Source: a bacterium | GTDB taxonomy: Bacteria > Patescibacteriota > Patescibacteriia > Patescibacteriales > UBA12465 | Length of the DNA stretch: 64,000 bases | NCBI GenBank assembly: GCA_021806615.1 | Contig: JAJZRB010000001.1 | Coordinates: forward strand, 207,201-271,200 | Reading direction: 5' to 3' | Shown: positions 15,702-53,987 of the stretch, in pieces | Layout: each line of letters begins with the position of its first letter | How positions within the stretch are numbered: the first letter of the stretch is position 1 | Translations under genes and position numbers: made by a program | The notes under the pieces: generated by a model | What the model saw: only the letters and a program-made list of their open reading frames with translations | Databases searched by the model: none | What the model was told of the DNA's origin: nothing

Positions 15702-16109
15702 CTATACGGCCGGACCCATCGTGCTTCCCCCGCTGAATGGCACATATTTAAAGACGAAATAAGTTATAGCATAAGCTGCAAGGACGACAATCAGCCCGAT
15801 TATCGCCGCCCGGATCGTATCTTGAGCTTGAGTCACCAGCTCTTCGTTTCCTTGAGCCGTCATCCAGCGGAAGCCAGCGGTAATCATCAGGATGATAAAA
15901 GTGATTCCTAGGAAACTCAAGACAATCTGGATGACTCGCGCGATTATCACTTCTATTGTAATATCGCTGAAATTAGCCGTTTTAGCGACCGTATCGGTCA
16001 TAGGCGCTAACCCTTGGTCAGTGTTAGTCAGGAGTTGGGCAGAGGCTGATGATAAAAATAAAGTTAAAGATAGAGACAGGGTTAAGCAGAGAGCAAGGAA
16101 AGTTTTCAT
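15702..16109 (-). CDS. VirB2/TrbC-type pilin-like small membrane protein, paralog P1
   Basis: A signal peptide (...SSASA|Q), a variable segment, TM1, the loop GFRWMTAQGNEE and TM2 (IIGLIVVLAAYAITYF). Confidence 0.7.
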   Translation of the reverse strand: MKTFLALCLTLSLSLTLFLSSASAQLLTNTDQGLAPMTDTVAKTANFSDITIEVIIARVIQIVLSFLGITFIILMITAGFRWMTAQGNEELVTQAQDTIRAAIIGLIVVLAAYAITYFVFKYVPFSGGSTMGPAV

Positions 16110-16113
16110 ATGA

Positions 16114-16524
16114 TTATTTAACTATTATGTTGCGGAAAATAAAATTCCAAATCGCGTAAGAAGACATGGCTATAACCAGGCCGATCAAAGCTTCCCGTAT
16201 TGTATCCCTGGCTTTGCCGATCTCTTCTTCGTTGCCCCGCGCTCTCATCCAGGCAAATCCGGCAATTATCATCAATACTATGAAAGTCACCCCCAAGAAG
16301 CCTAAAAAGGCTCCGATAATCGTACCGATTATGATCGCGGTAGATGCTTTAGTCTCGTCAGTCTGATATCCGCCCTGGCTAGCAACATTAGTTAATCTGT
16401 CTAAGAGTTTATTCGGTTGTGGCGTAGGCGTCGGAGTTGGAGTCTGAGCCAAAGCCATTGCCGGGGCTGCCAGGAAACCCGCTAGTAACAGGGAACAGAT
16501 AGTAGATTGAATGATTTTTTTCAT
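16114..16524 (-). CDS. VirB2/TrbC-type pilin-like small membrane protein, paralog P2
   Basis: A signal peptide (...AMALA|Q) and a (TP)4 repeat directly after the predicted cleavage site. The loop is GFAWMRARGNEEE, followed by TM2. Confidence 0.7.
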   Translation of the reverse strand: MKKIIQSTICSLLLAGFLAAPAMALAQTPTPTPTPQPNKLLDRLTNVASQGGYQTDETKASTAIIIGTIIGAFLGFLGVTFIVLMIIAGFAWMRARGNEEEIGKARDTIREALIGLVIAMSSYAIWNFIFRNIIVK

Positions 16525-16534
16525 ATCTTTTCCA

Positions 16535-16954
16535 TTATTTAGTGAGCAGGACAGATGAGACTATCCTGCCGAATCCGGCGCTCAGCGCGTAAGCAATAAG
16601 GACAATAGCTAGGCCTATTGCCAGATGGCGGATAGTATCTTTAGATTTTCTGACCTTTTCTTCATTACCGGCCGCTTGTACCCAATCGTTAGCCGCTAAG
16701 AACATCAAAGTTATAAAAATAGTGCCCAATACCGATAGAAAGACTCGAACGACTATACTAATCATATCTTCTAGACTGGTTGTTGTATTATAGTCGCTGG
16801 TTGACGCTACCTTCCCTACATTGTTGTTGAATTCATCTACTTTTTGGCTGTTTATCAGGGCAGCGCTCGCTGGGCTGATGATAAGTAGAGATAAGAAAAA
16901 TGATAAAAGTAACTTTTTAGATATATTCGCAAAGATTATCCATTCGCGGGGCAT
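16535..16954 (-). CDS. VirB2/TrbC-type pilin-like small membrane protein, paralog P3
   Basis: A signal peptide (...SPASA|A) and the loop ANDWVQAAGNEEK. I placed the start at the first ATG (16954); the track ORF uses an upstream TTG that overlaps P4. Confidence 0.65.
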   Translation of the reverse strand: MPREWIIFANISKKLLLSFFLSLLIISPASAALINSQKVDEFNNNVGKVASTSDYNTTTSLEDMISIVVRVFLSVLGTIFITLMFLAANDWVQAAGNEEKVRKSKDTIRHLAIGLAIVLIAYALSAGFGRIVSSVLLTK

Positions 16955-16971
16955 AAATGTAAGATATTTGA

Positions 16972-17382
16972 TTAAGGCCAAAAATATTTGACGACGAAAT
17001 AAGTTATAACATATGCGCCCAATGTCACGATTAATCCGATAATGGCGTTAATTAAGGTATTAGTGGCTTCTTTGATTTTTTGATCATTGCCACGGGAAGT
17101 CATCCAAGTATAAGCGCCGTAAAGCAAATAAGCAAAGAAAGCTATGCCTACCAAACTTAAGCCCGTATATAAAACCGTACTTATCACTGAATTTAAGGGG
17201 GTGGCATTAGCCCCGGTTTCAAAACCAGCTTTTTGACCGGAAGCATCTAGGCCACTTTGTTTTTGAAAGTCGTAAGTGCCGCCGTCGCTCGGGTTAGCCG
17301 CCAAGGAAACTTGATAAGAGGCTAAAGGTAAGATTAGCATCACTCCGCCGATTATTAGATTTTTTAGTTTATTCCCGCTCAT
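16972..17382 (-). CDS. VirB2/TrbC-type pilin-like small membrane protein, paralog P4
   Basis: A signal peptide (...VSLA|A) and the loop GAYTWMTSRGNDQK, followed by TM2 (IIGLIVTLGAYVITYF). Confidence 0.7.
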   Translation of the reverse strand: MSGNKLKNLIIGGVMLILPLASYQVSLAANPSDGGTYDFQKQSGLDASGQKAGFETGANATPLNSVISTVLYTGLSLVGIAFFAYLLYGAYTWMTSRGNDQKIKEATNTLINAIIGLIVTLGAYVITYFVVKYFWP

Positions 17383-17795
17383 TATTTTAGAAGTTCTGTC
17401 CCCAAGAAAGCAGTGATAGCGTAAGCTGCAAATACGATGATTATCCCGATGGCAGCGTTAATAATCATGTTTTTAGCGTTAGCGACCGTTTGCTCGTTGC
17501 CACTCGCCGTCATCCAGCTTATACCAGCATAGATCATAAGTCCTAGAAATAAGACGCCTACGAAGGAAAGGACCAGCCCGATAATCTGGCCGACTTTAGT
17601 AGCTAAAAAATTCGTTCCATAGGAAGAACTGTCGCTTGCCGGGACGGTTTGTGCTTTGAATGCCCCGACGCTATTAGCCGTCTGATTTAGACCATCTATA
17701 GTAGTGCTGGCCGTATCTTGGGCTCCAGCCGCCGTAATCATTCCGGATAAAACCAAAATACATAGGACGAGGATAAAGATTATCTTTTTTTTCAT
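17382..17795 (-). CDS. VirB2/TrbC-type pilin-like small membrane protein, paralog P5
   Basis: A signal peptide (MKKKIIFILV...AAGA|Q) and the loop AGISWMTASGNEQ. I prefer the start at the second ATG (17795) because the first ATG lies inside an intercistronic stem-loop. Confidence 0.65.
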   Translation of the reverse strand: MKKKIIFILVLCILVLSGMITAAGAQDTASTTIDGLNQTANSVGAFKAQTVPASDSSSYGTNFLATKVGQIIGLVLSFVGVLFLGLMIYAGISWMTASGNEQTVANAKNMIINAAIGIIIVFAAYAITAFLGTELLK

Positions 17796-17880
17796 ATTTG
17801 AAAAATTAACCACTGCTCTAAATACGAAATTTTTCATATTCAGAGCAGTGTCCCCATAATCATGGGAACACTAAATTTTA

Positions 17881-18267
17881 TTAATTACCGCTTACAGCCG
17901 TATTAAGAGAATTGATAACAAAGTTAGCTATTCCCCAAGACGCCAAGATAATTATCAAGCCGATGACACCTGCACCCAATAATTTTCTTGCCTCAGCCGT
18001 TTTTTCCTCATTACCGGCCGCTGTCATCCATTTGAAGCCGCCCAGTAAGATGATGCCTACCGCAATGACGCCCAAGAAACCCAAAGCTACATTTATGACC
18101 CGGCCGATGATAGTTCTCGGGTCATTGTTTGCTAAGGAATTGTTTAATCCAGCATTTACTTCATTCAAGCCCGGATCAAATTGAGCCATGGCTGGTAAAG
18201 CCAAAAAAGGCAAAACCAAAAAAGAAATAATCGCTAGAGAAACTAAGTGTTTGGAAATTTTATTCAT
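17881..18267 (-). CDS. VirB2/TrbC-type pilin-like small membrane protein, paralog P6 (first gene of the operon)
   Basis: A strong SD (AAAGGTGGTG), a signal peptide (...LPAMA|Q) and the loop GGFKWMTAAGNEEK, followed by TM2 (VIGLIIILASWGIANF). Confidence 0.75.
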   Translation of the reverse strand: MNKISKHLVSLAIISFLVLPFLALPAMAQFDPGLNEVNAGLNNSLANNDPRTIIGRVINVALGFLGVIAVGIILLGGFKWMTAAGNEEKTAEARKLLGAGVIGLIIILASWGIANFVINSLNTAVSGN

Positions 18268-21410: not shown

Positions 21411-22070
21411 TTATTCTACTAATATTTGGCGATTAATGATATTTTCTCGGCTATATTTCTTTTTGGCGGTAATGATGATATTATTCATGCCTTTTTTTAA
21501 ATTTATATCTTGAGAAAAATATCCGTTATGATTATTGAGGACTATTTCTCCATTGATTTTAACCTCAGCTTCCGGCTCAGTTTGGCCGCTGACCGTAATG
21601 GTGTCGCTTTGGATGAGCAGATTTTTACTAGGTTGGCTGATAATCAGCTCCGGTGGCAGGATTATCTTTTTGAAATAAACGACTAGGTATAAGAAACAGA
21701 CTATGATGATGGCCAGAATAAGCAGGTTTTTGATGATTTTCGGGAAAATGATAAATTTATTTTTTTTGACCACTTTTTGGGAAAAGGGGTTATTTTTTTC
21801 CTCCCCCGCTGACTCTTCTTGCCAGCCGCGTAAAATTTCCCGAGGCTTCAGGCCTAGAAATTTAGCGTATTTTTTTAAGAAATTTTTGCCATAGAGTCCG
21901 GCAGGAAGCTTCTCGAAATTTTCTTCTTCTAGGGCGTTCAGGTATTCAACGCGGATATTGATTTGTTTGGCCGCTTCCTCTATTTTTAAATTTTTGTAGT
22001 GCCTGGCCTGGCGTAATTTTTCCCCCGTGGTTTCTTCTAGCGGCAGTTTTTTAGGTATGAAAGCGGTCAT
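21411..22070 (-). CDS. RodZ-like HTH membrane protein
   Basis: The N-terminal XRE-type HTH GEKLRQARHYKNLKIEEAAKQINIRVEYLNALEEENFEKLP, a single TM helix and an extracytoplasmic beta domain. Confidence 0.6.
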   Translation of the reverse strand: MTAFIPKKLPLEETTGEKLRQARHYKNLKIEEAAKQINIRVEYLNALEEENFEKLPAGLYGKNFLKKYAKFLGLKPREILRGWQEESAGEEKNNPFSQKVVKKNKFIIFPKIIKNLLILAIIIVCFLYLVVYFKKIILPPELIISQPSKNLLIQSDTITVSGQTEPEAEVKINGEIVLNNHNGYFSQDINLKKGMNNIIITAKKKYSRENIINRQILVE

Positions 22071-22522
22071 GAATTTATAACGACGCCATCAAGCATGGAT
22101 TGGGGCTTGGGTTGCACTGGCTCATTATTAGCGTTTATAGCTTCGCCATTCCAAGTCAACCCCATAGATGATAAGACGAATTTAACGATCAGGAAACTGG
22201 AAAATACGATTACCAGGCCAATCACGGCTGCCACGATTATCTTTTTAGCTTTACCGACCGCGTCCGCCGAACCGGCAGAAATCAAGAACATGAATCCCCC
22301 GTAGATGAACATTACCAGCGATAGGGAACCGACTAGACCTAATACTATTTTAGATACGCGTATAGCTAGGATTAAAAAATCGTTTACACCATAATTGCCT
22401 TGAGCATATCCTGAAGCGCTCGTGTCTACGATGGAGCTCGGTACTTGCGCGTGAGCGGCGCTTATATAGAATAAGCAACCAGCCATTAGGATGAAAGCTG
22501 CCAGATAAATTTTTTTATTCAT
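22067..22522 (-). CDS. Divergent VirB2/TrbC-type pilin-like protein, paralog P7
   Basis: A signal peptide (MNKKIYLAAF...SAAHA|Q), TM1, the degenerate loop GGFMFLISAGSADAVGKAKK, TM2 (VIGLVIVFSSFLIV) and a C-terminal tail of about 35 aa. The stop codon overlaps the RodZ-like start (ATGA). Confidence 0.55.
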   Translation of the reverse strand: MNKKIYLAAFILMAGCLFYISAAHAQVPSSIVDTSASGYAQGNYGVNDFLILAIRVSKIVLGLVGSLSLVMFIYGGFMFLISAGSADAVGKAKKIIVAAVIGLVIVFSSFLIVKFVLSSMGLTWNGEAINANNEPVQPKPQSMLDGVVINS

Positions 22523-22547
22523 AAAATGATATTTAAGTCGGTTGAAT

Positions 22548-23927
22548 TCAATTGACGGTTTGTTGGACCTTGGCCGCAGCTGTATCAATTATACCTTGTA
22601 CCTTGTCGCTGATATTTTTAACCATCGTATCGATCATCTCTTTGACCGCATCTTCGGCGGCCTGAGCATTTTTCCCTTTATACCAGCTTTTAGCAGTGAG
22701 AACCTGGCTCGCGAAAACTCCGATTTCATTATCATTTTCTTGCGTGGCGACTAAAGAGCGCAAAGCGGTAGGATGTTTCGTTTTTTCTAAATAACTCTTA
22801 ACCTGAGCCTCCTTGGTCATAAATTGTATGAAGTCCCAAGCGACATCAGGGTGGGCGCTCTTTTTAGAGACCACCTCTACCCAATAATTAGCGAAATTTA
22901 CATTAGTCGGCGGATTGCCCTCTATCTGAGGCAATTTAGCGACGGAGAAGTTCAATTTCGGAGCTTGAGCTTTTATAGTCGGGAGATCGTACGAATAACT
23001 GAACATAATAGCCAGGTTTCCAGAAATGAACATATCCAGGGAGTTCGGCAAGGAATTATTCCAAGCGTAAGATTCTTTGACCGGATTAGAGAAATCAGTA
23101 TAGAACCGCAAAGCTTCAAGCCCAGGATTATAGTTGCTGTCTTTCCCGCTCGGAGGCACCTTATTGAACGTCACTTGGCCGTTGTCGTCCATCATGACCG
23201 CTCCGTTCTGCATCATAAGGACAGATAAAATATCGCTAAAACGATTAATGTTGGAACTGCCCCCTAAGGCTACCCCGGACTGGATAATGCCCTGTTTTTG
23301 GTCCTGTTTAGTTAGTTTTTTAACATCTTGTAAGAACTCTTTATTCCAGTATTGAGGAACCTGGCTGATGCCGGCATTATTGAATAAGTCTTTATTATAG
23401 TACATAGCCAAGGTGTCTACAGATAAAGGTAATCCGTATATTTGCCCGTCGCCGAGTATTACGTCATGGCTGACAGCATCCACGAAATTATCTTTGAGCT
23501 CTTTAAGAGTCAAGCTGTTAGTCGTACGTAATTCGGGGATGACCTCTTTTTTAAGCGTGCCTTGGACGACCGGATAAGCCATGGTTATAGTGGCGGGCAT
23601 CGGCGCTAATTTTGATCGGTATTTTTCCATCCAGGTATTATGAATAGAGAAGATATCCGGACCGCGATCTTCGGCTAAGGCGTTGAGCAAAGCATTTTCA
23701 TATTCTTCATAACGAAGCTTGCGATACTCAATATTGACGAAAGGATGAAGGGCCTTATATTTAGTGATGATGTCCTGGAAAGCGTCTTGGCCGTCAAACA
23801 CGCGCCAATAGGTTAAAGTTATCGGTTGCATAGCGTCTTGAGTCGCTTGGTTGGTTATCTTGCAACCGAAACCGGAACTTATTAATAAAATAGCTAGAAG
23901 AGATAAGACCGTTATTTTCTTAGACAT
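22548..23927 (-). CDS. ABC-transporter substrate-binding lipoprotein (sugar-type, family 1)
   Basis: Lipobox SGFG-C and a typical extracellular solute-binding domain pattern. No permease or ATPase gene is adjacent. Confidence 0.75.
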   Translation of the reverse strand: MSKKITVLSLLAILLISSGFGCKITNQATQDAMQPITLTYWRVFDGQDAFQDIITKYKALHPFVNIEYRKLRYEEYENALLNALAEDRGPDIFSIHNTWMEKYRSKLAPMPATITMAYPVVQGTLKKEVIPELRTTNSLTLKELKDNFVDAVSHDVILGDGQIYGLPLSVDTLAMYYNKDLFNNAGISQVPQYWNKEFLQDVKKLTKQDQKQGIIQSGVALGGSSNINRFSDILSVLMMQNGAVMMDDNGQVTFNKVPPSGKDSNYNPGLEALRFYTDFSNPVKESYAWNNSLPNSLDMFISGNLAIMFSYSYDLPTIKAQAPKLNFSVAKLPQIEGNPPTNVNFANYWVEVVSKKSAHPDVAWDFIQFMTKEAQVKSYLEKTKHPTALRSLVATQENDNEIGVFASQVLTAKSWYKGKNAQAAEDAVKEMIDTMVKNISDKVQGIIDTAAAKVQQTVN

Positions 23928-46212: not shown

Positions 46213-48711
46213 ATGGCTGGAAAATTCATTAAGATCAGGGGGGCGCGAACTAATAACTTAAAAGATATCGGTCTAGATATCCCTCGCGATCAGCTGGTAG
46301 TCGTTACTGGCTTGTCTGGTTCCGGCAAATCATCTCTTGCCTTCGATACTATTTATGCTGAAGGACAGCGCCGTTATGTCGAATCCCTGTCTTCTTATGC
46401 GCGGCAGTTCGTCGGTTTGATGGATAAGCCGGATGTTGATTTGATTGAGGGCCTGTCACCAGCGATTTCTATTGATCAGCGTACGACTCAGCATAATCCT
46501 CGATCTACCGTCGGCACCATTACGGAAATTTATGATTATTTGAGGCTTTTATATGCTCGCGCCGGTTGGCCGTATTGTCCGCAATGCGGCGAGAAATTGA
46601 AAAAATCGTCTGAGGAGAAAAAAAAGGCTAAAACCGTGCGCGGCCGGGAAATAAAATCTAATGTCGTAGAAAGATCGTATGTTTGCCCGTCTTGCAGTTA
46701 TCGCCGTCCAGAATTAGAGCCTCGCGATTTTTCTTTTAATTCCGGCCATGGCGCTTGTCCATCCTGCGGCGGGTTGGGGACTAAGTCGGAAATTGATGCC
46801 AGCTTGGTTTTTAATGTTAATTTAAGCATCGTGGAAGGAGCTATCAAGCCCCTATCCCATGCCAATCTCAACGGTAACGGCCTGTTGGCCGCATTGGAAG
46901 ATTTAGCCGCTCGCCATAATTTCAGTTTGCGCCCAGCGATTAAAGATCTCCATCCGGATCATAGGAAACTGCTGGTATCCGGCGACGGGCAGTTCGGCGG
47001 GATTTTAAAGCATCTAGAAGAAAAATATCAAGAGACTAAATCTAGCTTCGTCAAACAAGAGATTGAAAAAGTAATGAGAGTCTCCTTATGCCCGTCTTGT
47101 AGGGGCGCACGTCTTAAGCCGGAATCGCTGGCTGTTACGGTAAACGGCTTATCGATCATCGAAGTGACCGATAAAAGCATCAAGGAATTATCTGATTTAT
47201 TGGGTTCCTGGATAAAAAATAGTGCGGCTTTAAACGGTAACGCTAAGATAATAGAGCCTATTTTACGAGAAGTGATTAGTAATTTAGGTTTTTTGTCTGA
47301 TGTCGGTTTAGGATATTTGACTTTAAGCCGAGCTGCGATGACTTTATCGGGCGGCGAAGCGCAGCGCATCCGCTTAGCTTCTCAGGTCGGATCAACCTTG
47401 AGCGGCGTCCTTTATGTTTTAGATGAGCCCTCTATCGGTTTACATCAGCGGGATAATGATAAATTAATCGCTACTTTGAAAAGATTACGCGATAACGGCA
47501 ATACGGTAATTGTCGTTGAGCATGACGCGGCTACTATGCTGGCGGCTGATTGGCTTGTTGATATCGGTCCTGGCGCCGGTGATTCCGGGGGACGAGTCTT
47601 ATTTACTGGAACGCCAGCCGGGATCAAGGATTGCCAAGATTCTCTGACCGGGGCTTATTTAGCCGGTCGGAAAGAAATAAAGATACCCAATAAATTCAGG
47701 CCAGGAAACGGCCGAGAAATAAAAATAATCGGAGCGACAGAGCATAATTTAAAGAATATCGACGTGGCGATACCGCTAGGCAAGCTCGTGGCTATTACTG
47801 GCGTTTCTGGATCAGGCAAGTCTACTTTGATGAGCGATATTCTGGCTAAGGCGCTGAGTCGTAAATTCTATCGGGCTAAAGTTGAACCCGGGGACCATAA
47901 AGGCCTAAGCGGTTTAGAATTTATAAATAAAGTTATTGATATTGATCAATCGCCCATCGGACGCACGCCACGCTCTAACCCCGCGACCTATACCGGATTG
48001 TTCACTTATATCCGCGATTTATTTGCGGCTTTGCCGGAGGCGCGCATCAAGGGCCTGGGGCCCGGACATTTTTCTTTTAATGTCCCTGGTGGGCGATGCG
48101 AAAACTGTTCCGGCGATGGAGTGATCAAGGTAGAAATGCAATTTTTATCCGATGTCTATTTGACTTGCGATGTCTGCGGCGGCAAGAGATTCAAATCTAA
48201 GGTCTTGGAGGTCCTATATCAAGGCAAGAATATTTTTGAGGTCTTAGAGATGACCGTTCAAGAAGCTAATGACTTTTTTAAGCATCATTCGGCTATCAGC
48301 CAGAAGCTCAAAACCCTGTCCGAAGTCGGTTTGGATTATATCAAGCTCGGGCAAAGCGCGACGACCTTCTCTGGCGGCGAAGCGCAGCGTATAAAATTAG
48401 CGACCGAGCTATCGCGGCGCGCTACCGGCAAGACTCTCTACATCCTGGACGAACCGACGACCGGCCTGCATTTCGCTGATATCGACCGTCTTTTAAAAGT
48501 GCTCAATATGTTGGTCGATCAGGGCAACACCGTTTTGATTATTGAACATAACTTGGATGTTATCAAGTCAGTGGATTGGGTAATTGATCTTGGCCCGGAT
48601 GGCGGTGAAAGCGGCGGATATCTAGTAGCTGCCGGCACGCCTCCGGAAATAGCAAAAATTAGCCGCAGCTATACCGGGCAATATTTGAAGAAAATGTCGG
48701 TTATAAAGTAA
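46213..48711 (+). CDS. uvrA: Excinuclease ABC subunit A, short form lacking the UvrB-binding domain
   Basis: [28 protein letters not shown], two ABC modules and zinc modules. Only 33 aa separate CPQC (aa 122) from CPSC (aa 158). Confidence 0.9.
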
Positions 48712-48717
48712 ATAATT

Positions 48718-48740
48718 AAAAACCCGGGAACCGGGTTTTT
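48718..48740. terminator. Bidirectional terminator between uvrA and the ATPase operon
   Basis: AAAAACCCGG-gaa-CCGGGTTTTT. Confidence 0.75.
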
Positions 48741-48744
48741 ATAA

Positions 48745-49239
48745 TTATAGTTCCGCCAGCAGCTTCAATTCTATCCGCCGGCTACCAGTGTCCAGCGTAG
48801 CAAAAGTAGCTTGATGCCATACCCCCGCTAAGTTGCCGGGGTTCGCTATAATGGTAGAGCCCCGCCGTTCTAACCATGGCTTATGGGTGTGGCCATAGAA
48901 TATATAATCTATTATTTCGGCCGTTGATTCTAATAATATTTTTATTTTGGCTGGTTCGTGGACTAGCCCGATATGCAATCCCGCTAATTCTAAGAGCCCA
49001 GTTTCACCGTAATAGCGGATATTACGATAGGCACCCAATTCCGTTTCTGAAAAAAGCTCAATATTGCCTCTAACCATAAAAATCTCGCCGGAGAATGCCG
49101 CGAGATTTTTAATAGTTTCGCTAGTTGTCGTATCGCCGCAAAAAATTATTTGTTTAATCTCATTAGTGCGGCACCAGCCTAGGCATTTTTTCAGGTTTTC
49201 TAGATTATCATGGATATCCGAAAGAACGGCAATCAACAT
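48745..49239 (-). CDS. YfcE/MJ0936-family metallophosphoesterase
   Basis: The motifs LSDIHDN, GDTT, GN and GHTH, in the canonical order. Confidence 0.85.
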   Translation of the reverse strand: MLIAVLSDIHDNLENLKKCLGWCRTNEIKQIIFCGDTTTSETIKNLAAFSGEIFMVRGNIELFSETELGAYRNIRYYGETGLLELAGLHIGLVHEPAKIKILLESTAEIIDYIFYGHTHKPWLERRGSTIIANPGNLAGVWHQATFATLDTGSRRIELKLLAEL

Positions 49240-49240
49240 A

Positions 49241-49816
49241 TTATTTTTTCCCGCGCAATCTTATCTCGTAAGACATTTGTTCTAACTTCCTCAAATGTCC
49301 TCGTGCTTGGTCATATTTAGTACGCAGATAACCGGTCAGGTCGAAATCGACTAATTGGACCATGATATCATCGGCCGTCTTTTTAATTTTGGCTACCTCG
49401 GAGAATTGGCCGGCCGCGGCCTGGTTGGTCGCATAGCGCACCAGTTCGCCTATGAGGTCGCAGATACCGCCCAGATAGCCTTCATAGTCTAAGTTTAATC
49501 CCGCGGTAGAATCAATTTTTTTATTTTTAATGATTATCTGGAAAGTTTTTCCCTCTAAATATTCCTCCACGGCCGCCTTATAAGCTCCTTCGCGGTGCAA
49601 GCGCTCGGATCCGAAACGATCTTCCAGGTCCTTTAAAGATTTTTCCATTTCATTTATTTTTCTTTCGGCCGATTTCAAGTCTTGGCGGTGCAGAGCAAAG
49701 ATAGTTTTTTTCGCCTCAAAGAGAATATTGTTAGACGCGCTTATTATCTGGCGGCGCTGAGACTCGTTAGCCTGATAATCATTTTTTAATTTTTTTAGGA
49801 ATTTATCATTAATCAT
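49241..49816 (-). CDS. Translin-family protein (COG2178-like)
   Basis: An all-helical ORF with the motif YEGYLGGICDLIGELVRYA (Y..G..D..GEL.R) and N-terminal ALHRQDLKSAE, as in translin/TRAX-like proteins. Confidence 0.55.
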   Translation of the reverse strand: MINDKFLKKLKNDYQANESQRRQIISASNNILFEAKKTIFALHRQDLKSAERKINEMEKSLKDLEDRFGSERLHREGAYKAAVEEYLEGKTFQIIIKNKKIDSTAGLNLDYEGYLGGICDLIGELVRYATNQAAAGQFSEVAKIKKTADDIMVQLVDFDLTGYLRTKYDQARGHLRKLEQMSYEIRLRGKK

Positions 49817-49818
49817 AT

Positions 49819-52800
49819 TTATTCAATTACTTTAAATACCTCTTCTAAGCTGGTTTCTCCTTGGAGAGCCTTGATAATTCCGTCTTGTAGCATGGTAATC
49901 ATGCCCTCTTTTATGGCCTCATTTTCAATGTCAAAATCGGTGACGTTGTCGGTCTGGATTAATTTCTGGATAGCTGGCGTCATAGTTATGGTTTCGTAGA
50001 GCCCCAGACGTCCCTTATAACCGATATTCTGGCATTTTTCGCAGCCGGTTCCTTCGTAGAATACTAATTTTTCTGGAATTTTAATTAAAGAATTATGAAT
50101 TTGGCTGAGACTTTTCTGGACTTGTTCCAGCCGTTCAGAAGAGGGGGGCGTTATTTTTTTGCAATAAGGACAGAGGCGGCGGACTAGACGCTGCCCGATA
50201 GTGAAGTCAATAGAATTGGCTAGTGTTTGTCGGTCTAATCCTAGTCCGGCAAAACGGGAAATAGCCCCAGCCGCGCTATTAGCATGGATGGTTGATAAGA
50301 CTAGGTGCCCGGTCAAGGAGGCCTCAATGGCTATCTTGGCAGTTTCTGAGTCGCGGATTTCTCCGATCATCATGATATTCGGATTTTGACGCAGCAAGGA
50401 GCGCATCGCTGAAGCAAAAGTATAACCATGTTCTTCGTCTATTTGAGTTTGCATGATGCCTGGCAGCTGGTATTCGATCGGATCTTCTACGGTAATTATT
50501 TTAACGTCAGGCTTGTTTAATTTATTCAAAATACTGTAGAGGGTGGTAGTTTTTCCTGACCCAGTCGGACCGGTCGTCAAGATTATGCCGCGGGTTTTCT
50601 TCATGGCCAACTGTAGAGAATCAAACGCTACCGAGGTGATCCCCAGCTTATTCATATCTAAATTAGCGGCCGTAGAAGAGAGCAGACGGACGACGATGGT
50701 TTCACCGTAACCGCCGGCGATAATGGATAAACGGCAGTCAATTTTATGATCGGGTAGATAGATCGTAAAGCGTCCATCAAAAGTAGCTCTTTTAATATTA
50801 GTCGGCGTTCCGGCCAAGATTTTTATTTCCGATAAAATCGGCAAATAGCTGGTTTTCGGTAAATTTAGGATATCGTGTAAAACGCCATCAATACGAAAAC
50901 GAACTTTGACGTTATTCTCCGTAGGTTCAATATGGATATCGCCGGCCTCCGCCACTGCCGCAAGGGCCATGATCATATTGATTAAATCTCCGGTAGGGAT
51001 TTCTTTGGCGGCCTCGGCTATTTTGGTTATGTCTTGGCTTAGTTTCTTCGCCTGTTCCATTTCCGTCGTCTTAATTTTTACGCCGCGGCCGATAGTTTGG
51101 GAAATGACGATGTCATATAGTTCGTTGACATAATCAAAATTGCCAATGACGCGATAGATTTCTTCTAAGGAAGTCAGTCCTTCTAAAACTTTTAAAATTC
51201 CGTCTTGCAGCATGGTAATCATGCCGTCCTCAACAGCTTGTTGGAGAATTTTAAAAGAAGGCGCATTATCAACTGTCAGCTGTTTGATCTTATCGTTCAT
51301 CGTGAAAATTTCATAGATACCGCTGCGGCCTTTATAACCGATGAAATTGCAAGCCGAGCAGCCTGGTCCTGTCTGGTAGATTGTCGGCAGTTCAGCCGGA
51401 ACGTCAATGCCGGCCTTAGGAGAAATAACCGCCAAGATTTTATCTACCTGTTCTTTTTCTTCCGCTGATAATATCTTTTTTTGCCGGCATTCCGGGCAGA
51501 GGCAACGGACTAGTCGCTGCCCGATGACGGCGTTAATTGAAGGCACTAGGAAATAAGGCTTGACGCCGATATCGATAAGTCGCGGGATAACGCCAGCGGC
51601 ATCATTGGTATGAAGGGTGGATAAGACGAGGTGCCCGGTCAGAGAAGCTTGGACGGCTATTTCGGCCGTTTCTAAGTCTCGGATTTCTCCGACCATAACG
51701 ACGTTCGGGTCTTGGCGCAGTATAGAGCGCAAGCCGTCGGAAAAAGTATAGCCGCGCTTATTATCTACCTGGCTTTGATTTATGCCTTTGAGCTGATATT
51801 CAATCGGATCTTCCAGGGTAATGATCTTAGTACCTGGTTGATTGAGTTGGTTCAGAACGGCATATAGGGTCGTAGTTTTTCCTGAACCGGTCGGTCCGGT
51901 TGTCAGGACGAGGCCGTTGGGTTTAGCGATCTCATGTTTTAAGATTGGCAGTATTTCCGGCCGGATACCCAGCTTTTCGAATTCTAGAGAAGCGGCCGAT
52001 GAATCCAGAAGACGCATCACCACGCTTTCTCCATAGGCGGTAGGCAAGAAGGAACAGCGGACGTCTATTTTTTTGTCTTTTAAGTAAATGGTATAGCGGC
52101 CGTCCTGCGGTCGGTCATTGATATTTATCTTGACGCGAGCCAGGATCTTTAAGCGGGCGACGATTTTATTCCATTTTTCCCGGCTGATAACGGCTGCTTC
52201 CTGGAGGACTCCGTCGATTCTGATCCTAATGACCACGCCGTTTTCCTCCGCTTCTATATGGACATCGCTCCCGCCGACTTTTAAGGCCGTAGCTAACATC
52301 AGCGTAACGACATCGGTGATATTAACCTCATTGATTTTTTCATTTAGGCTTTTATAGCTGCTGATAGCTTCTTTGAATTTTTCCAAGCTTTCCTCGTTTA
52401 TTTCTACGCCGCTTTCATATTTTTTGACTTTGGGGAGGGACTTATAAGCTTCCAAGCCCACTTCCAAGCTGTTAGGAGAAATAAGATATAGCCGCGTGCT
52501 GGCGAAATACTGTTCGCCGAGACGCGCTAATTCGTCTTCCACTTCCCGCGTCGGTTCTAAGCAGCCTAGACGGATATTCTTCCCGTCGTAATAGAAACAG
52601 ATCGCTTTCATTTCTCGAGCTCGGCCTTCTTGGACCAGAGCTAAGGCTTCCGGACTTATAGAGAAGCCGTATAGATTAACATAATCTAAGCCTAATTGTT
52701 GGGAATTTTGTTGTGTCTGTTTTTCAATCCGCTTCAGTTTTATCTCGTCTTGCTTTTTAGCAAAACGACCGGCGACGCTTTCTTCGTCATCGGTCGGATT

Positions 52801-52833
52801 GATCAAGTTTTCAATGGATGCAAAATCACTCAT
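49819..52833 (-). CDS. Tandem-duplicated PilB/GspE-type secretion ATPase (two complete N2+CTD modules in one polypeptide)
   Basis: Module 1 is aa 1-564. It has a GspE-N-like domain, Walker A GPTGSGKTTT (aa 313), VVMVGEIRD, GHLVLSTLHTN and CPEC...CSAC. Module 2 is aa ~565-1004. It has Walker A GPTGSGKTTT (aa 755), IMMIGEIRD, GHLVLSTIHAN and CPYC...CEKC. Confidence 0.9.
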   Translation of the reverse strand: MSDFASIENLINPTDDEESVAGRFAKKQDEIKLKRIEKQTQQNSQQLGLDYVNLYGFSISPEALALVQEGRAREMKAICFYYDGKNIRLGCLEPTREVEDELARLGEQYFASTRLYLISPNSLEVGLEAYKSLPKVKKYESGVEINEESLEKFKEAISSYKSLNEKINEVNITDVVTLMLATALKVGGSDVHIEAEENGVVIRIRIDGVLQEAAVISREKWNKIVARLKILARVKININDRPQDGRYTIYLKDKKIDVRCSFLPTAYGESVVMRLLDSSAASLEFEKLGIRPEILPILKHEIAKPNGLVLTTGPTGSGKTTTLYAVLNQLNQPGTKIITLEDPIEYQLKGINQSQVDNKRGYTFSDGLRSILRQDPNVVMVGEIRDLETAEIAVQASLTGHLVLSTLHTNDAAGVIPRLIDIGVKPYFLVPSINAVIGQRLVRCLCPECRQKKILSAEEKEQVDKILAVISPKAGIDVPAELPTIYQTGPGCSACNFIGYKGRSGIYEIFTMNDKIKQLTVDNAPSFKILQQAVEDGMITMLQDGILKVLEGLTSLEEIYRVIGNFDYVNELYDIVISQTIGRGVKIKTTEMEQAKKLSQDITKIAEAAKEIPTGDLINMIMALAAVAEAGDIHIEPTENNVKVRFRIDGVLHDILNLPKTSYLPILSEIKILAGTPTNIKRATFDGRFTIYLPDHKIDCRLSIIAGGYGETIVVRLLSSTAANLDMNKLGITSVAFDSLQLAMKKTRGIILTTGPTGSGKTTTLYSILNKLNKPDVKIITVEDPIEYQLPGIMQTQIDEEHGYTFASAMRSLLRQNPNIMMIGEIRDSETAKIAIEASLTGHLVLSTIHANSAAGAISRFAGLGLDRQTLANSIDFTIGQRLVRRLCPYCKKITPPSSERLEQVQKSLSQIHNSLIKIPEKLVFYEGTGCEKCQNIGYKGRLGLYETITMTPAIQKLIQTDNVTDFDIENEAIKEGMITMLQDGIIKALQGETSLEEVFKVIE

Positions 52834-52865: not shown

Positions 52866-53846
52866 TTAAGATTTTCGGCCGAAGACTCTCTCTAGCTTCG
52901 CGACGGCGCCCCGGTCTTTTAGTTGTAAGAATAAATTGGTCCAAGTGGCGATTTGGAAGGTAGTTAATACTGAGCCGACCAGGATAATGATGACTATGGC
53001 TAGGATTATCATGAGAATAACCAGCCAGCTTATTTTAAACATTAATCCGAGTAATAATAAGGGAAGCAGGAAAATAGCTAATGCCGCCAGGATTAAGCCG
53101 CTGACTAGGAAGTTGATTATAAACAGGATGATGGCCATTTCCAGGCTGACCAACCAATTTTTATTAAATAGTCTTTTGCCATTTTCTAGGGAAGCTACGA
53201 ATGATTTATTATCTAGAACACGGTAGGCAATAGCGTATTTGAGCATGAGGGACAGGCCGACCGCTATCGGCACGAAAATGACGAAGAAGATAGTGTACAT
53301 TACGGCTAAAGCCGTGGCATCGCTGATTACCATGAATAAAAGGGGCAGGCTGATGATGAAAAAGACGAAACTTACGATGATTTTGATCATTAGATTCAAG
53401 CCTAATACCGACCAAAAATGGTAATGGCCGGCCGTCAAGCTGTCGCGGAGGCTCAATTGCAGGTCTTTTTTCTTATTCTCGTTAATTTTTTTGACATCGC
53501 TGACCAAGGCTGCTTGGCAGGTTATCGCTAGCCAAACGAAAGAAGCTAGTAGCACGAAAGAAATCAAAAGCAGAGACAAGACATTCATTATCGTCAACAC
53601 GTCATAATGGAACAGGTTAATAAGGCCAGTTAAAAAGTTTTTAGCCAGATCAGCTAGAGCCAAGATCCCATCCAGACGATAATAAGAACCGTCTACCATT
53701 CCCTGATTTAAATTCTGGGACATCAATTGATATTCCCAGGAGCCGCCAGCCGCCGTTAAAGAGGCAAATAAGCCAAGAAACCATAAATATTTATGTTTCC
53801 AGGAGACGGCCCACGCCTGTTTTAATAAAGAGCGATAAGAAAACAT
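52866..53846 (-). CDS. Polytopic membrane protein of unknown function (first gene of the ATPase operon)
   Basis: About 6-7 TM helices. It lies 32 nt upstream of the tandem ATPase gene. I recognise no family. Confidence 0.5.
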   Translation of the reverse strand: MFSYRSLLKQAWAVSWKHKYLWFLGLFASLTAAGGSWEYQLMSQNLNQGMVDGSYYRLDGILALADLAKNFLTGLINLFHYDVLTIMNVLSLLLISFVLLASFVWLAITCQAALVSDVKKINENKKKDLQLSLRDSLTAGHYHFWSVLGLNLMIKIIVSFVFFIISLPLLFMVISDATALAVMYTIFFVIFVPIAVGLSLMLKYAIAYRVLDNKSFVASLENGKRLFNKNWLVSLEMAIILFIINFLVSGLILAALAIFLLPLLLLGLMFKISWLVILMIILAIVIIILVGSVLTTFQIATWTNLFLQLKDRGAVAKLERVFGRKS

Positions 53847-53901: not shown

Positions 53902-53930
53902 TTGAAAATTTAAGAAAAGTCTGATAATAT
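53902..53930 (+). promoter_or_regulatory. Sigma70-like promoter (TTGAAA-17 nt-TAATAT) upstream of tyrS
   Basis: The -35 lies at 53902-53907 and the -10 at 53925-53930. Confidence 0.4.
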
Positions 53931-53987
53931 TATAACATAATTTGCTAATTAATACCAAGCCGAACAGCCGGCTTTCTTGAGCTATAT

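Follow-up and report, generated by a model that had tools for sequence, protein, structure and literature searches.

Introduction

PilB, PilT and GspE are motors central to adhesion, motility, DNA uptake and secretion. In the characterised PilB/GspE subgroup, each chain carries one N2 domain and one C-terminal ATPase domain (CTD), and the chains assemble into homohexamers. The coordination of the six sites in such a ring is debated, with C2 sequential firing set against C3 or C6 states (PMC6858323, 10.1101/082750). Here, a window of 64,000 nucleotides (nt) from contig JAJZRB010000001.1 (assembly GCA_021806615.1) was analysed, in which one gene at 49819..52833 on the minus strand encodes two complete copies of the motor ATPase. 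The host is an ultrasmall Patescibacteria/Falkowbacteria-like bacterium, and the presence of two N2+CTD modules per chain departs from the one-module-per-chain homohexamer architecture of the PilB/GspE subgroup. All positions are those of the window, and the tandem gene is called the fusion below.

Domain organization of the tandem ATPase

The open reading frame (ORF) at 49819..52833 (minus strand, stop codon included) was read from a single ATG start through 1004 amino acids (aa) without an internal stop, both in the ORF list and in our own translation. Pfam matched PF00437 (T2SSE) to two stretches of the protein with a whole-protein E of 7.9e-233, and the best stretch covered profile positions 7-370 of 370. 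A hidden Markov model (HMM) of the module recognized two full-length units, aa 142-563 and aa 584-1003, and the NCBIfam models GspE, PilB, TfpB and ComGA gave two matching stretches each. The first-pass annotation of this DNA had described a single 1004-aa polypeptide with two complete, non-degenerate PilB/GspE-type modules, and this description was borne out by the translation, the doubled PF00437 match and the module HMM. The Pfam mapping that it had proposed as a check was run with the same outcome, PF00437 lying in two stretches and neither half being degenerate, while PF05157 (MshEN) was flagged in orthologs, mostly weakly. The layout of the chain and its motifs was as follows.

52411..52833, minus strand: N-terminal helix and N1 (T2SSE_N/MshEN-like) domain, aa 1-141, single copy in the chain
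51145..52410, minus strand: module 1, aa 142-563, comprising pre-N2 segment, N2 (172-300), ATPase CTD (301-563) and CPEC/CSAC zinc site
51868..51897, minus strand: Walker A GPTGSGKTTT of module 1, aa 313-322, conserved family-wide
51085..51144, minus strand: inter-module linker GNFDYVNELYDIVISQTIGR, predicted helix, aa 564-583
49825..51084, minus strand: module 2, aa 584-1003, comprising pre-N2 segment, N2 (about 614-742), CTD (743-1003) and CPYC/CEKC zinc site
50542..50571, minus strand: Walker A GPTGSGKTTT of module 2, aa 755-764, offset by 442 from module 1
Asp box: LEDPIEY at aa 340 in module 1, VEDPIEY at aa 782 in module 2
Walker B: VVMVGEIRD at aa 378 in module 1, IMMIGEIRD at aa 820 in module 2
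His box: GHLVLSTLHTN at aa 400 in module 1, GHLVLSTIHAN at aa 842 in module 2
Tetracysteine: CPEC 446 and CSAC 492 in module 1, CPYC 888 and CEKC 931 in module 2

The N1 domain was found once per chain, not once per module. Residues 37-141 aligned with N1 of full-length PilB (3jc8 residues 47-558, 5tsg residues 77-584) and the PilB model matched from position 45, in agreement with the GspE-N-like N-terminal domain that had been read from the sequence earlier. N1 was the least conserved folded region of the protein, with 66% identity among close orthologs.

By its sequence, the protein clearly belongs to the T2SSE superfamily. An N1 domain and a zinc site are features of PilB/GspE and not of PilT, and the best PDB sequence matches were GspE and PilB with E of about 1e-100. 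On these three grounds, the N1 domain, the putative zinc site and the best matches, the protein was placed in the PilB/GspE assembly subgroup, not with PilT. Scored over the whole protein, the two NCBIfam equivalog models gave 889 and 924 bits, above the cut-offs of 675.65 for TIGR02538 (PilB) and 630.25 for TIGR02533 (GspE); these totals are sums over two modules, and such equivalog scores are inflated because of the duplication.

Distribution of the tandem family

The identical protein was encoded on 11 contigs of independent ENA and NCBI assemblies, and the closed chromosomes CP066698.1 and OW818634.1 also carried the fusion. A search over 5.8 billion proteins was conducted, and all of the best 120 clusters considered were 1003-1007 aa long, with 100% query coverage and 74-100% identity. 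Their source records named them 'GspE/PulE family protein' and assigned them to Patescibacteria or Candidatus Falkowbacteria. A GTDB scan with one genome per species returned 263 relatives, and the locus counts given here and below rest on the best 80 of them. The fusion was full length in 80/80 of these species loci, at 64-88% identity. In total, hundreds of orthologs of 1003-1007 aa were obtained from NCBI, JGI, ENA and Logan. HMMER, run exhaustively on 1.84 billion representatives clustered at 50% identity, reached further: 13 representatives (978-1018 aa) aligned from end to end, with 40-63% identity to the query, and contained two full modules each according to the module HMM, and several more tandem proteins were seen as contig-end fragments. 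The source labels of the 13 were Parcubacteria (including KKU82539.1, from a metagenome-assembled genome (MAG) labelled GW2011), Paceibacterota and Falkowbacteria.

These results indicated that the tandem ATPase is a large and deep Patescibacteria family and not a one-off. An assembly artefact, which the first-pass annotation had already discounted, was ruled out by the occurrence of the fusion in multiple independent assemblies (11 contigs), in all 80 species loci at full length and in closed chromosomes. The survey of related genomes that had been suggested at the same time was thereby carried out, on the best 80 of the 263 GTDB relatives. The tandem sequences have been public for years, labelled only 'GspE/PulE family protein', and what is new is the recognition and characterization of their architecture. 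Many third-party-annotation MAGs with the Patescibacteria-type locus (L014, L016, L023 and others) are titled 'uncultured Gammaproteobacteria bacterium', and because of their gene content and synteny these titles look like a placeholder or a mislabel.

Catalytic motifs and divergence of the two modules

In the window protein, neither module had lost Walker A, Asp box, Walker B, His box, N2 arginines or tetracysteine. The motif positions and the 442-aa offset noted earlier were exact on recheck, and motif mapping confirmed that every catalytic motif is intact in both modules. When the halves were aligned (aa 142-563 with aa 584-1003), BLASTP gave 49% identity over 423 columns with E=1e-139. The ATPase core (aa 301-445 against +442) was 62.8% identical and the N2 domains 41%; the earlier estimate by eye for the core had been roughly 55-60%. 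At the DNA level the modules shared about 71% identity and could be aligned in the ATPase core only. Because protein identity was 49% and the DNA identity of about 71% was confined to the core, the duplication in the window gene is old; a recent duplication was ruled out on the same figures, as the first-pass annotation had maintained.

Throughout the main family, both modules kept Walker A GK[TS], the Asp-box glutamates, Walker B GE[IV]RD, both His-box histidines and the N2 arginines of RxRxDG and DGR. The four cysteines were mostly kept; in P0123 the zinc site of module 2 was lost. The module 2 Walker A GxxxxGKT was kept in 13/13 of the divergent representatives. Module 2 also carried a signature of its own, in which LRQNP replaces LRQDP, and QEGR or F/I-DGR replaces PQDGR. 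Identity to the window protein among 118 close orthologs was 83% for the module 1 CTD, 80% for the module 2 CTD, 79% for the module 1 N2 and 74% for the module 2 N2. These values point to comparable purifying constraint on both modules across more than 80 species, and as far as sequence can tell both modules look functional.

Predicted structure and inter-module linker

The full chain was modelled with AlphaFold2 from a shallow 60-sequence alignment. The mean predicted local distance difference test score (pLDDT) was 76.9 and the predicted template modelling score (pTM) was 0.47, and both modules showed the same order of secondary-structure elements. The model supports two predicted complete N2+CTD folds and leaves their mutual arrangement open. 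When each module was compared with the PDB by Foldseek, Geobacter PilB (5tsh/5zfr) was matched with a target template modelling score (TMt) of 0.82-0.86 and 44% identity, module 1 reaching up to 0.86. The other matches were Thermus PilF, GspE/EpsE, BfpD, PilT and DotB, and all of them were single-module chains.

The homology of the modules starts at aa 142 and aa 584, about 30 aa ahead of N2, and therefore the non-homologous linker is only about 20 aa long (564-583). The linker of about 45 aa given by the first-pass annotation was corrected in this way, the other 30 aa or so being a duplicated pre-N2 segment. The linker was the most conserved segment of the protein, with 92% identity among the 118 close orthologs, and its motif G-D-x-x-Y-[IV]-E-x-[LM]-Y...R-G persisted in relatives at about 40% overall identity. 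AlphaFold2 placed a helix at 567-581 with low pLDDT. Given this conservation and the persistence of the motif, the linker is a structural element and not a passive tether.

Phylogeny of the modules and separate duplications

A neighbour-joining tree of the modules was built from 418 columns with 100 bootstraps. The second modules of 12 main-family proteins formed one clade (bootstrap 28%), and the first modules intermingled with single-module PilB-like proteins of the candidate phyla radiation (CPR). Such a tree is consistent with one ancient duplication-fusion event after which module 1 stayed 'PilB-like', the deep nodes not being robust. It also suggests that the main family arose once and that some lineages later lost module 2.

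P0128, P0129 and P0136 departed from this pattern: within each protein, the modules were mutual closest relatives, with bootstraps of 100, 100 and 94. For this reason the three proteins are read as independent duplications, the architecture having arisen on its own at least three further times. The halves were 53% identical in P0128 and 70% in P0129 (L009 3226-6213), and both proteins were without the linker motif of the main family, which points to independent duplication or gene conversion. P0136 (L010 9001-12144, GCA_964384625.1) is a protein of 1047 aa with an N-terminal T2SSF (PilC/GspF-type) cytoplasmic domain ahead of two T2SSE modules, in a context that is not CPR-like (ECF sigma, sulfatase, BatA/VWA). 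The Walker A lysine of its module 1 was lost (GSGTTT); degeneration of a module therefore does occur when it is tolerated.

Gene neighbourhood in the window

The fusion lies in an apparent four-gene co-directional unit made up of the membrane-protein, fusion, translin-family and phosphoesterase genes. The features of the unit and its borders were as follows.

52866..53846, minus strand: polytopic membrane protein, 326 aa, upstream and co-directional, 32-nt gap to the fusion, candidate partner
49819..52833, minus strand: tandem ATPase (fusion), second gene of the apparent unit, 2-nt gap to the next gene
49241..49816, minus strand: translin-family protein, 191 aa, PF01997 E=5.7e-21, 1-nt gap to the next gene
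48745..49239, minus strand: YfcE-type metallophosphoesterase, 164 aa, Metallophos_2, TIGR00040 yfcE 69 bits against a cut-off of 56, last in the unit
53929..53958, minus strand: promoter-like site TTGGTA-18-TATAAT with TG, upstream of the membrane-protein gene, a consensus match only, such sites being no commoner than in shuffled sequence
48717..48741, minus strand: strong terminator-like hairpin, 11-bp stem and T-run, just past the phosphoesterase gene, a consensus match only

No minus-strand terminator-like site was found inside the four-gene unit. The 326-aa membrane protein had no Pfam or NCBIfam match and no PilC-like cytoplasmic domains, and a sub-threshold DUF7544 match appeared in one homolog only. 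The first-pass annotation had seen no adjacent gene for a PilC-type platform, a prepilin peptidase or a type IV prepilin. This was upheld by Pfam, which gave no match to T2SSF, PilM/N/O, Peptidase_A24 or N_methyl in about 40 of the about 65 window ORFs scanned, and by a class III signal peptide regular expression, which found no prepilin-like N-terminus in the window or in 94 related loci.

Several side observations were made in the same region. The translin family is best known from eukaryotes and archaea, and here its gene is translationally coupled to the fused ATPase (2-nt gap). A UvrA-like ABC ATPase of 832 aa, with a UvrA DNA-binding domain and two ABC modules, is encoded at 46213-48711 on the plus strand and stands beside the unit in 68/80 loci; canonical UvrA is about 940 aa. 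Six tandem small ORFs of 128-151 aa at 15702-18267 (minus strand) each had a signal peptide and a C-terminal hydrophobic pair, and a seventh lies 4 kb off at 22067-22588 (minus strand). The array matched PF18895 T4SS_pilin (TrbC/VirB2-like) with E from 1e-5 to 2e-10, by which its reading as type IV pilins was ruled out, and it is 32 kb from the fusion. No VirB4, VirB6 or VirD4 was seen among its scanned neighbours.

Conserved neighbours in relatives

The membrane-protein gene was directly upstream of the fusion in 79/80 species genomes, with a median gap of about 10 nt, and the translin gene directly downstream in 77/80; the phosphoesterase was present in 72/80. The wider region was syntenic too, with the UvrA-like gene in 68/80 loci and ArgRS in 65/80. 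With synteny extending this far, conserved gene order by itself argues only weakly for a functional link between the neighbours.

Homologs of the membrane protein were also found directly upstream of the single-module relatives P0138 (E=1e-47) and P0144 (E=1.5e-65). Members of this family are located at 52866-53846 (minus strand) in the window, at 7396-8709 in L091 and at 6224-7213 in L093. The family evolves fast, with a mean identity of 48% against about 75% for the ATPase, and it was not found near the divergent fusions in loci L007-L010. A DHH-family gene was directly upstream of the fused P0122, P0124 and P0125 and of the single-module P0143. These DHH phosphoesterases, of 378-389 aa and about 36% identical to one another, gave a weak NrnA-like match and were located at 7710-8879 in L007, 5437-6594 in L008, 7736-8872 in L092 and 8823-9974 in L095. 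In the Parcubacteria-type branch the locus read polA...tsaE <-> DHH -> ATPase ... ruvB-yebC-ruvC; tsaE and polA stood beside the fused P0129, and ruvB beside the single-module P0146. Fused genes lay outside pilus loci in the Falkowbacteria-type lineage and in P0122, P0124, P0125 and P0129, and so did the single-module genes P0138, P0143, P0144 and P0146. The fusion hence belongs to an 'orphan' PilB-like CPR subfamily with single- and double-module forms, which keeps one of two upstream partners.

Discussion

Our work describes a natural tandem ATPase of the PilB/GspE type, and the explanation we favour is a tandem PilB-like motor that forms an α3β3 ring and serves a type IV filament. Taken as a whole, this explanation is given about an even chance. 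Three chains would close into one planar six-module ring, an α3β3 pseudo-hexamer with alternating modules, so that a module 1 would always stand opposite a module 2. This trimer of dimers, already put forward in the first-pass annotation, is plausible, and it would have three N1 domains, not six. According to PMC6858323 the family probably works with C2 symmetry, although many crystals are C3 or C6, and a C2-symmetric sequential mechanism has been proposed for PilB and PilT (10.1101/082750, PMC6858323). With two-fold-symmetric sequential firing, both module types would bind and hydrolyse ATP. Since opposite positions would differ in type, C2 firing would require both types to cycle, and this would explain why neither module degenerated. 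The three-fold symmetry of the chains would match a trimeric platform such as that reported for GspF/PulF (PMC10790770). For the geometry alone, a little over half of the weight is placed on the planar trimer ring, and the remainder is shared by other arrangements beside the stacked double ring discussed below.

The ring would dock on a membrane partner and drive assembly of the type IV filament type, in pilus extension or in DNA uptake of the competence kind. PilC/PilM encoded elsewhere may be this partner, or else the polytopic membrane protein conserved upstream. PilB/PilC/PilM/PilN/PilO occur in CPR bacteria generally (PMC6744442) and Falkowbacteria encode type IV pilins (PMC8179133), and a type IV filament system in the host lineage is plausible. 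Whether the tandem motor itself works in type IV filament assembly, for pilus extension or competence-type DNA uptake, is an evenly balanced call.

Several points weigh against the favoured explanation. No PilC, PilM, PilD or pilin gene was found within +/-10 kb in about 90 related loci from about 12 lineages. By contrast, CPR pilus genes are reported to co-localise (PMC6744442), and the CPR pilB genes studied by experiment, TM7x pilB1 and pilB2, encode one module each and are part of pilus loci (PMC12206443). A canonical pilB may also be present in the genomes that have the fusion. A single module would score about half of the whole-protein total, below both NCBIfam equivalog cut-offs. The AlphaFold2 model, with its pTM of 0.47, does not fix the relative placement of the modules or the geometry of the ring, and the module tree is weakly supported at depth, as shown by the bootstrap of 28 for the module 2 clade. 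Finally, intact motifs are no proof of ATP turnover at both sites.

The strongest competing explanation is that the protein is not a pilus motor. The orphan PilB-like CPR subfamily would then serve a distinct and possibly CPR-specific process together with the membrane protein or the DHH phosphoesterase, one candidate being DNA or nucleotide uptake or processing, and either ring geometry would be compatible with it. Fused and single-module relatives alike were outside pilus loci wherever examined, one of the two partners was directly upstream in fused and single forms (the membrane protein in 79/80 fused loci and at P0138 and P0144, the DHH gene at P0122, P0124, P0125 and P0143), and nucleic-acid-related neighbours recurred (translin, polA, ruvB, ruvC). 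However, gene order was conserved region-wide (UvrA-like gene 68/80, ArgRS 65/80), and the adjacency may represent frozen synteny. Moreover, the membrane protein has no PilC-like cytoplasmic domains and belongs to no known family, and all sequence and fold evidence puts both modules among the pilus/type II secretion system (T2SS) assembly ATPases. A role outside pili is therefore considered somewhat unlikely. A more specific form of it combines a Patescibacteria-specific membrane machine, with a non-PilC partner from the membrane-protein family or DHH, and an obligate α3β3 motor in which both site types fire. This combination is unlikely; if true, it would be the first natural, covalently constrained T2SSE motor and would have a non-PilC membrane partner.

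Regarding the geometry, six chains could instead form a stacked double ring, with a hexameric module 1 ring on a hexameric module 2 ring, as in KaiC, p97/NSF and ClpB. Tandem P-loop ATPases with both halves intact commonly stack, as is established for KaiC and type II AAA+ proteins; the predicted three-helix connection of 50 aa (564-613) would be long enough, and the AlphaFold2 model favours no arrangement at its pTM of 0.47. Against stacking, it is established that the T2SSE N2 packs on the CTD of its neighbour and that one face of the ring engages the platform, which leaves a second ring without an obvious mechanical partner, and only one N1 is present per chain. A stacked double ring is thus regarded as improbable compared with the planar trimer ring.

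It is also conceivable that one module is regulatory and holds nucleotide without cycling, like alpha in the F1-ATPase alpha3beta3, with three working sites left. The clade-specific substitutions of module 2 adjoin catalytic elements (LRQNP; x-Q-E-G-R or x-F/I-D-G-R) and module 2 evolves slightly faster, some members such as P0123 are without the module 2 zinc site, and in the independent fusion P0136 the Walker A of module 1 is dead. The main family nevertheless keeps the Walker A lysine, the Asp-box and Walker B glutamates, the His-box histidines and the N2 arginines in both modules, and this retention holds down to about 35-40% inter-module identity, which makes a regulatory module very unlikely. 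Nothing was found in favour of an artefact that joined two adjacent genes of about 500 aa through a chimeric assembly, a frameshift or a missed stop; the chance of this is virtually nil, with the exact protein on 11 contigs of independent assemblies, hundreds of orthologs of 1003-1007 aa from several archives, closed chromosomes included, and a junction that is the most conserved segment of the protein.

The tandem protein would be of use in the study of these motors. A natural covalent dimer fixes neighbouring against opposite subunits, its two site types could be mutated independently without engineered linkers, and questions of motor symmetry would become directly testable. The catalytic motifs were kept in both modules over deep divergence, which argues that all six positions matter. 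The episymbiosis of Patescibacteria depends on surface filaments and DNA uptake (PMC6744442, PMC12206443), and the wide conservation of the ATPase locus in very small genomes suggests an important role.

Compared with known systems, PilB is the closest. PilB of Geobacter metallireducens (5TSG/5TSH/6OLJ), G. sulfurreducens (5ZFR) and Myxococcus xanthus (3JC8) has the same order of N1, N2 and CTD and the same Walker A, Asp box, Walker B, His box and tetracysteine zinc site as the window protein, with about 44% identity per module and sequence E of about 1e-99 to 1e-102. PilB has one N2+CTD module and forms a homohexamer, whereas the window protein has two modules and one N1. In addition, pilB genes normally occur with pilC, pilM and pilin genes, whereas the tandem gene was without them at all loci examined. 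GspE/EpsE of Vibrio (1P9R, 4KSR/4KSS, 4PHT) matched with E of about 1e-101 to 1e-102 and shares the motifs, the zinc site and an N1 of the GspL-binding type, but is single-module where the window protein is double-module. The T2SS belongs to diderms and includes a secretin. Secretins of the PilQ type are absent from CPR bacteria (PMC6744442). The GspE-Hcp1 fusions (4KSR/4KSS) are engineered, and their partner is a different protein and not a second ATPase.

Thermus thermophilus PilF (6F8L, 5IT5, 5OIU) is a long PilB-type protein of about 900 aa with an internal duplication, and module 2 aligned to its core with E of about 1e-88 to 1e-91. It is established that PilF repeats N-terminal GSPII/N1-type domains and has one ATPase module, whereas the window protein duplicates the ATPase module; the PilF alignments covered one core only. 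Within the CPR, the single-module PilB-like proteins P0138, P0143, P0144 and P0146 were nearest to module 1, with 48-52% identity, and grouped with it in the tree. They share housekeeping loci and upstream partners (membrane protein or DHH) with the fusion family, but are 554-584 aa long, with neither module 2 nor the linker helix.

Neither full-text literature searches nor CPR pilus papers yielded an account of a naturally occurring tandem T2SSE ATPase, and every solved relative recovered from the PDB by sequence and Foldseek searches was single-module. The view of the first-pass annotation that this family has no characterised tandem-fused member was therefore in line with the full-text literature search and with the PDB. 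Two linked P-loop modules, both often active, are found in KaiC CI-CII, in p97/NSF D1-D2 and in engineered covalent ClpX multimers. All of these belong to other folds and families, KaiC and p97 form stacked rings, and the likeness to the tandem ATPase is an analogy. Set beside these systems, a natural covalent dimer of a pilus motor is useful and somewhat surprising, while duplication of a domain inside an established family does not make a new category.

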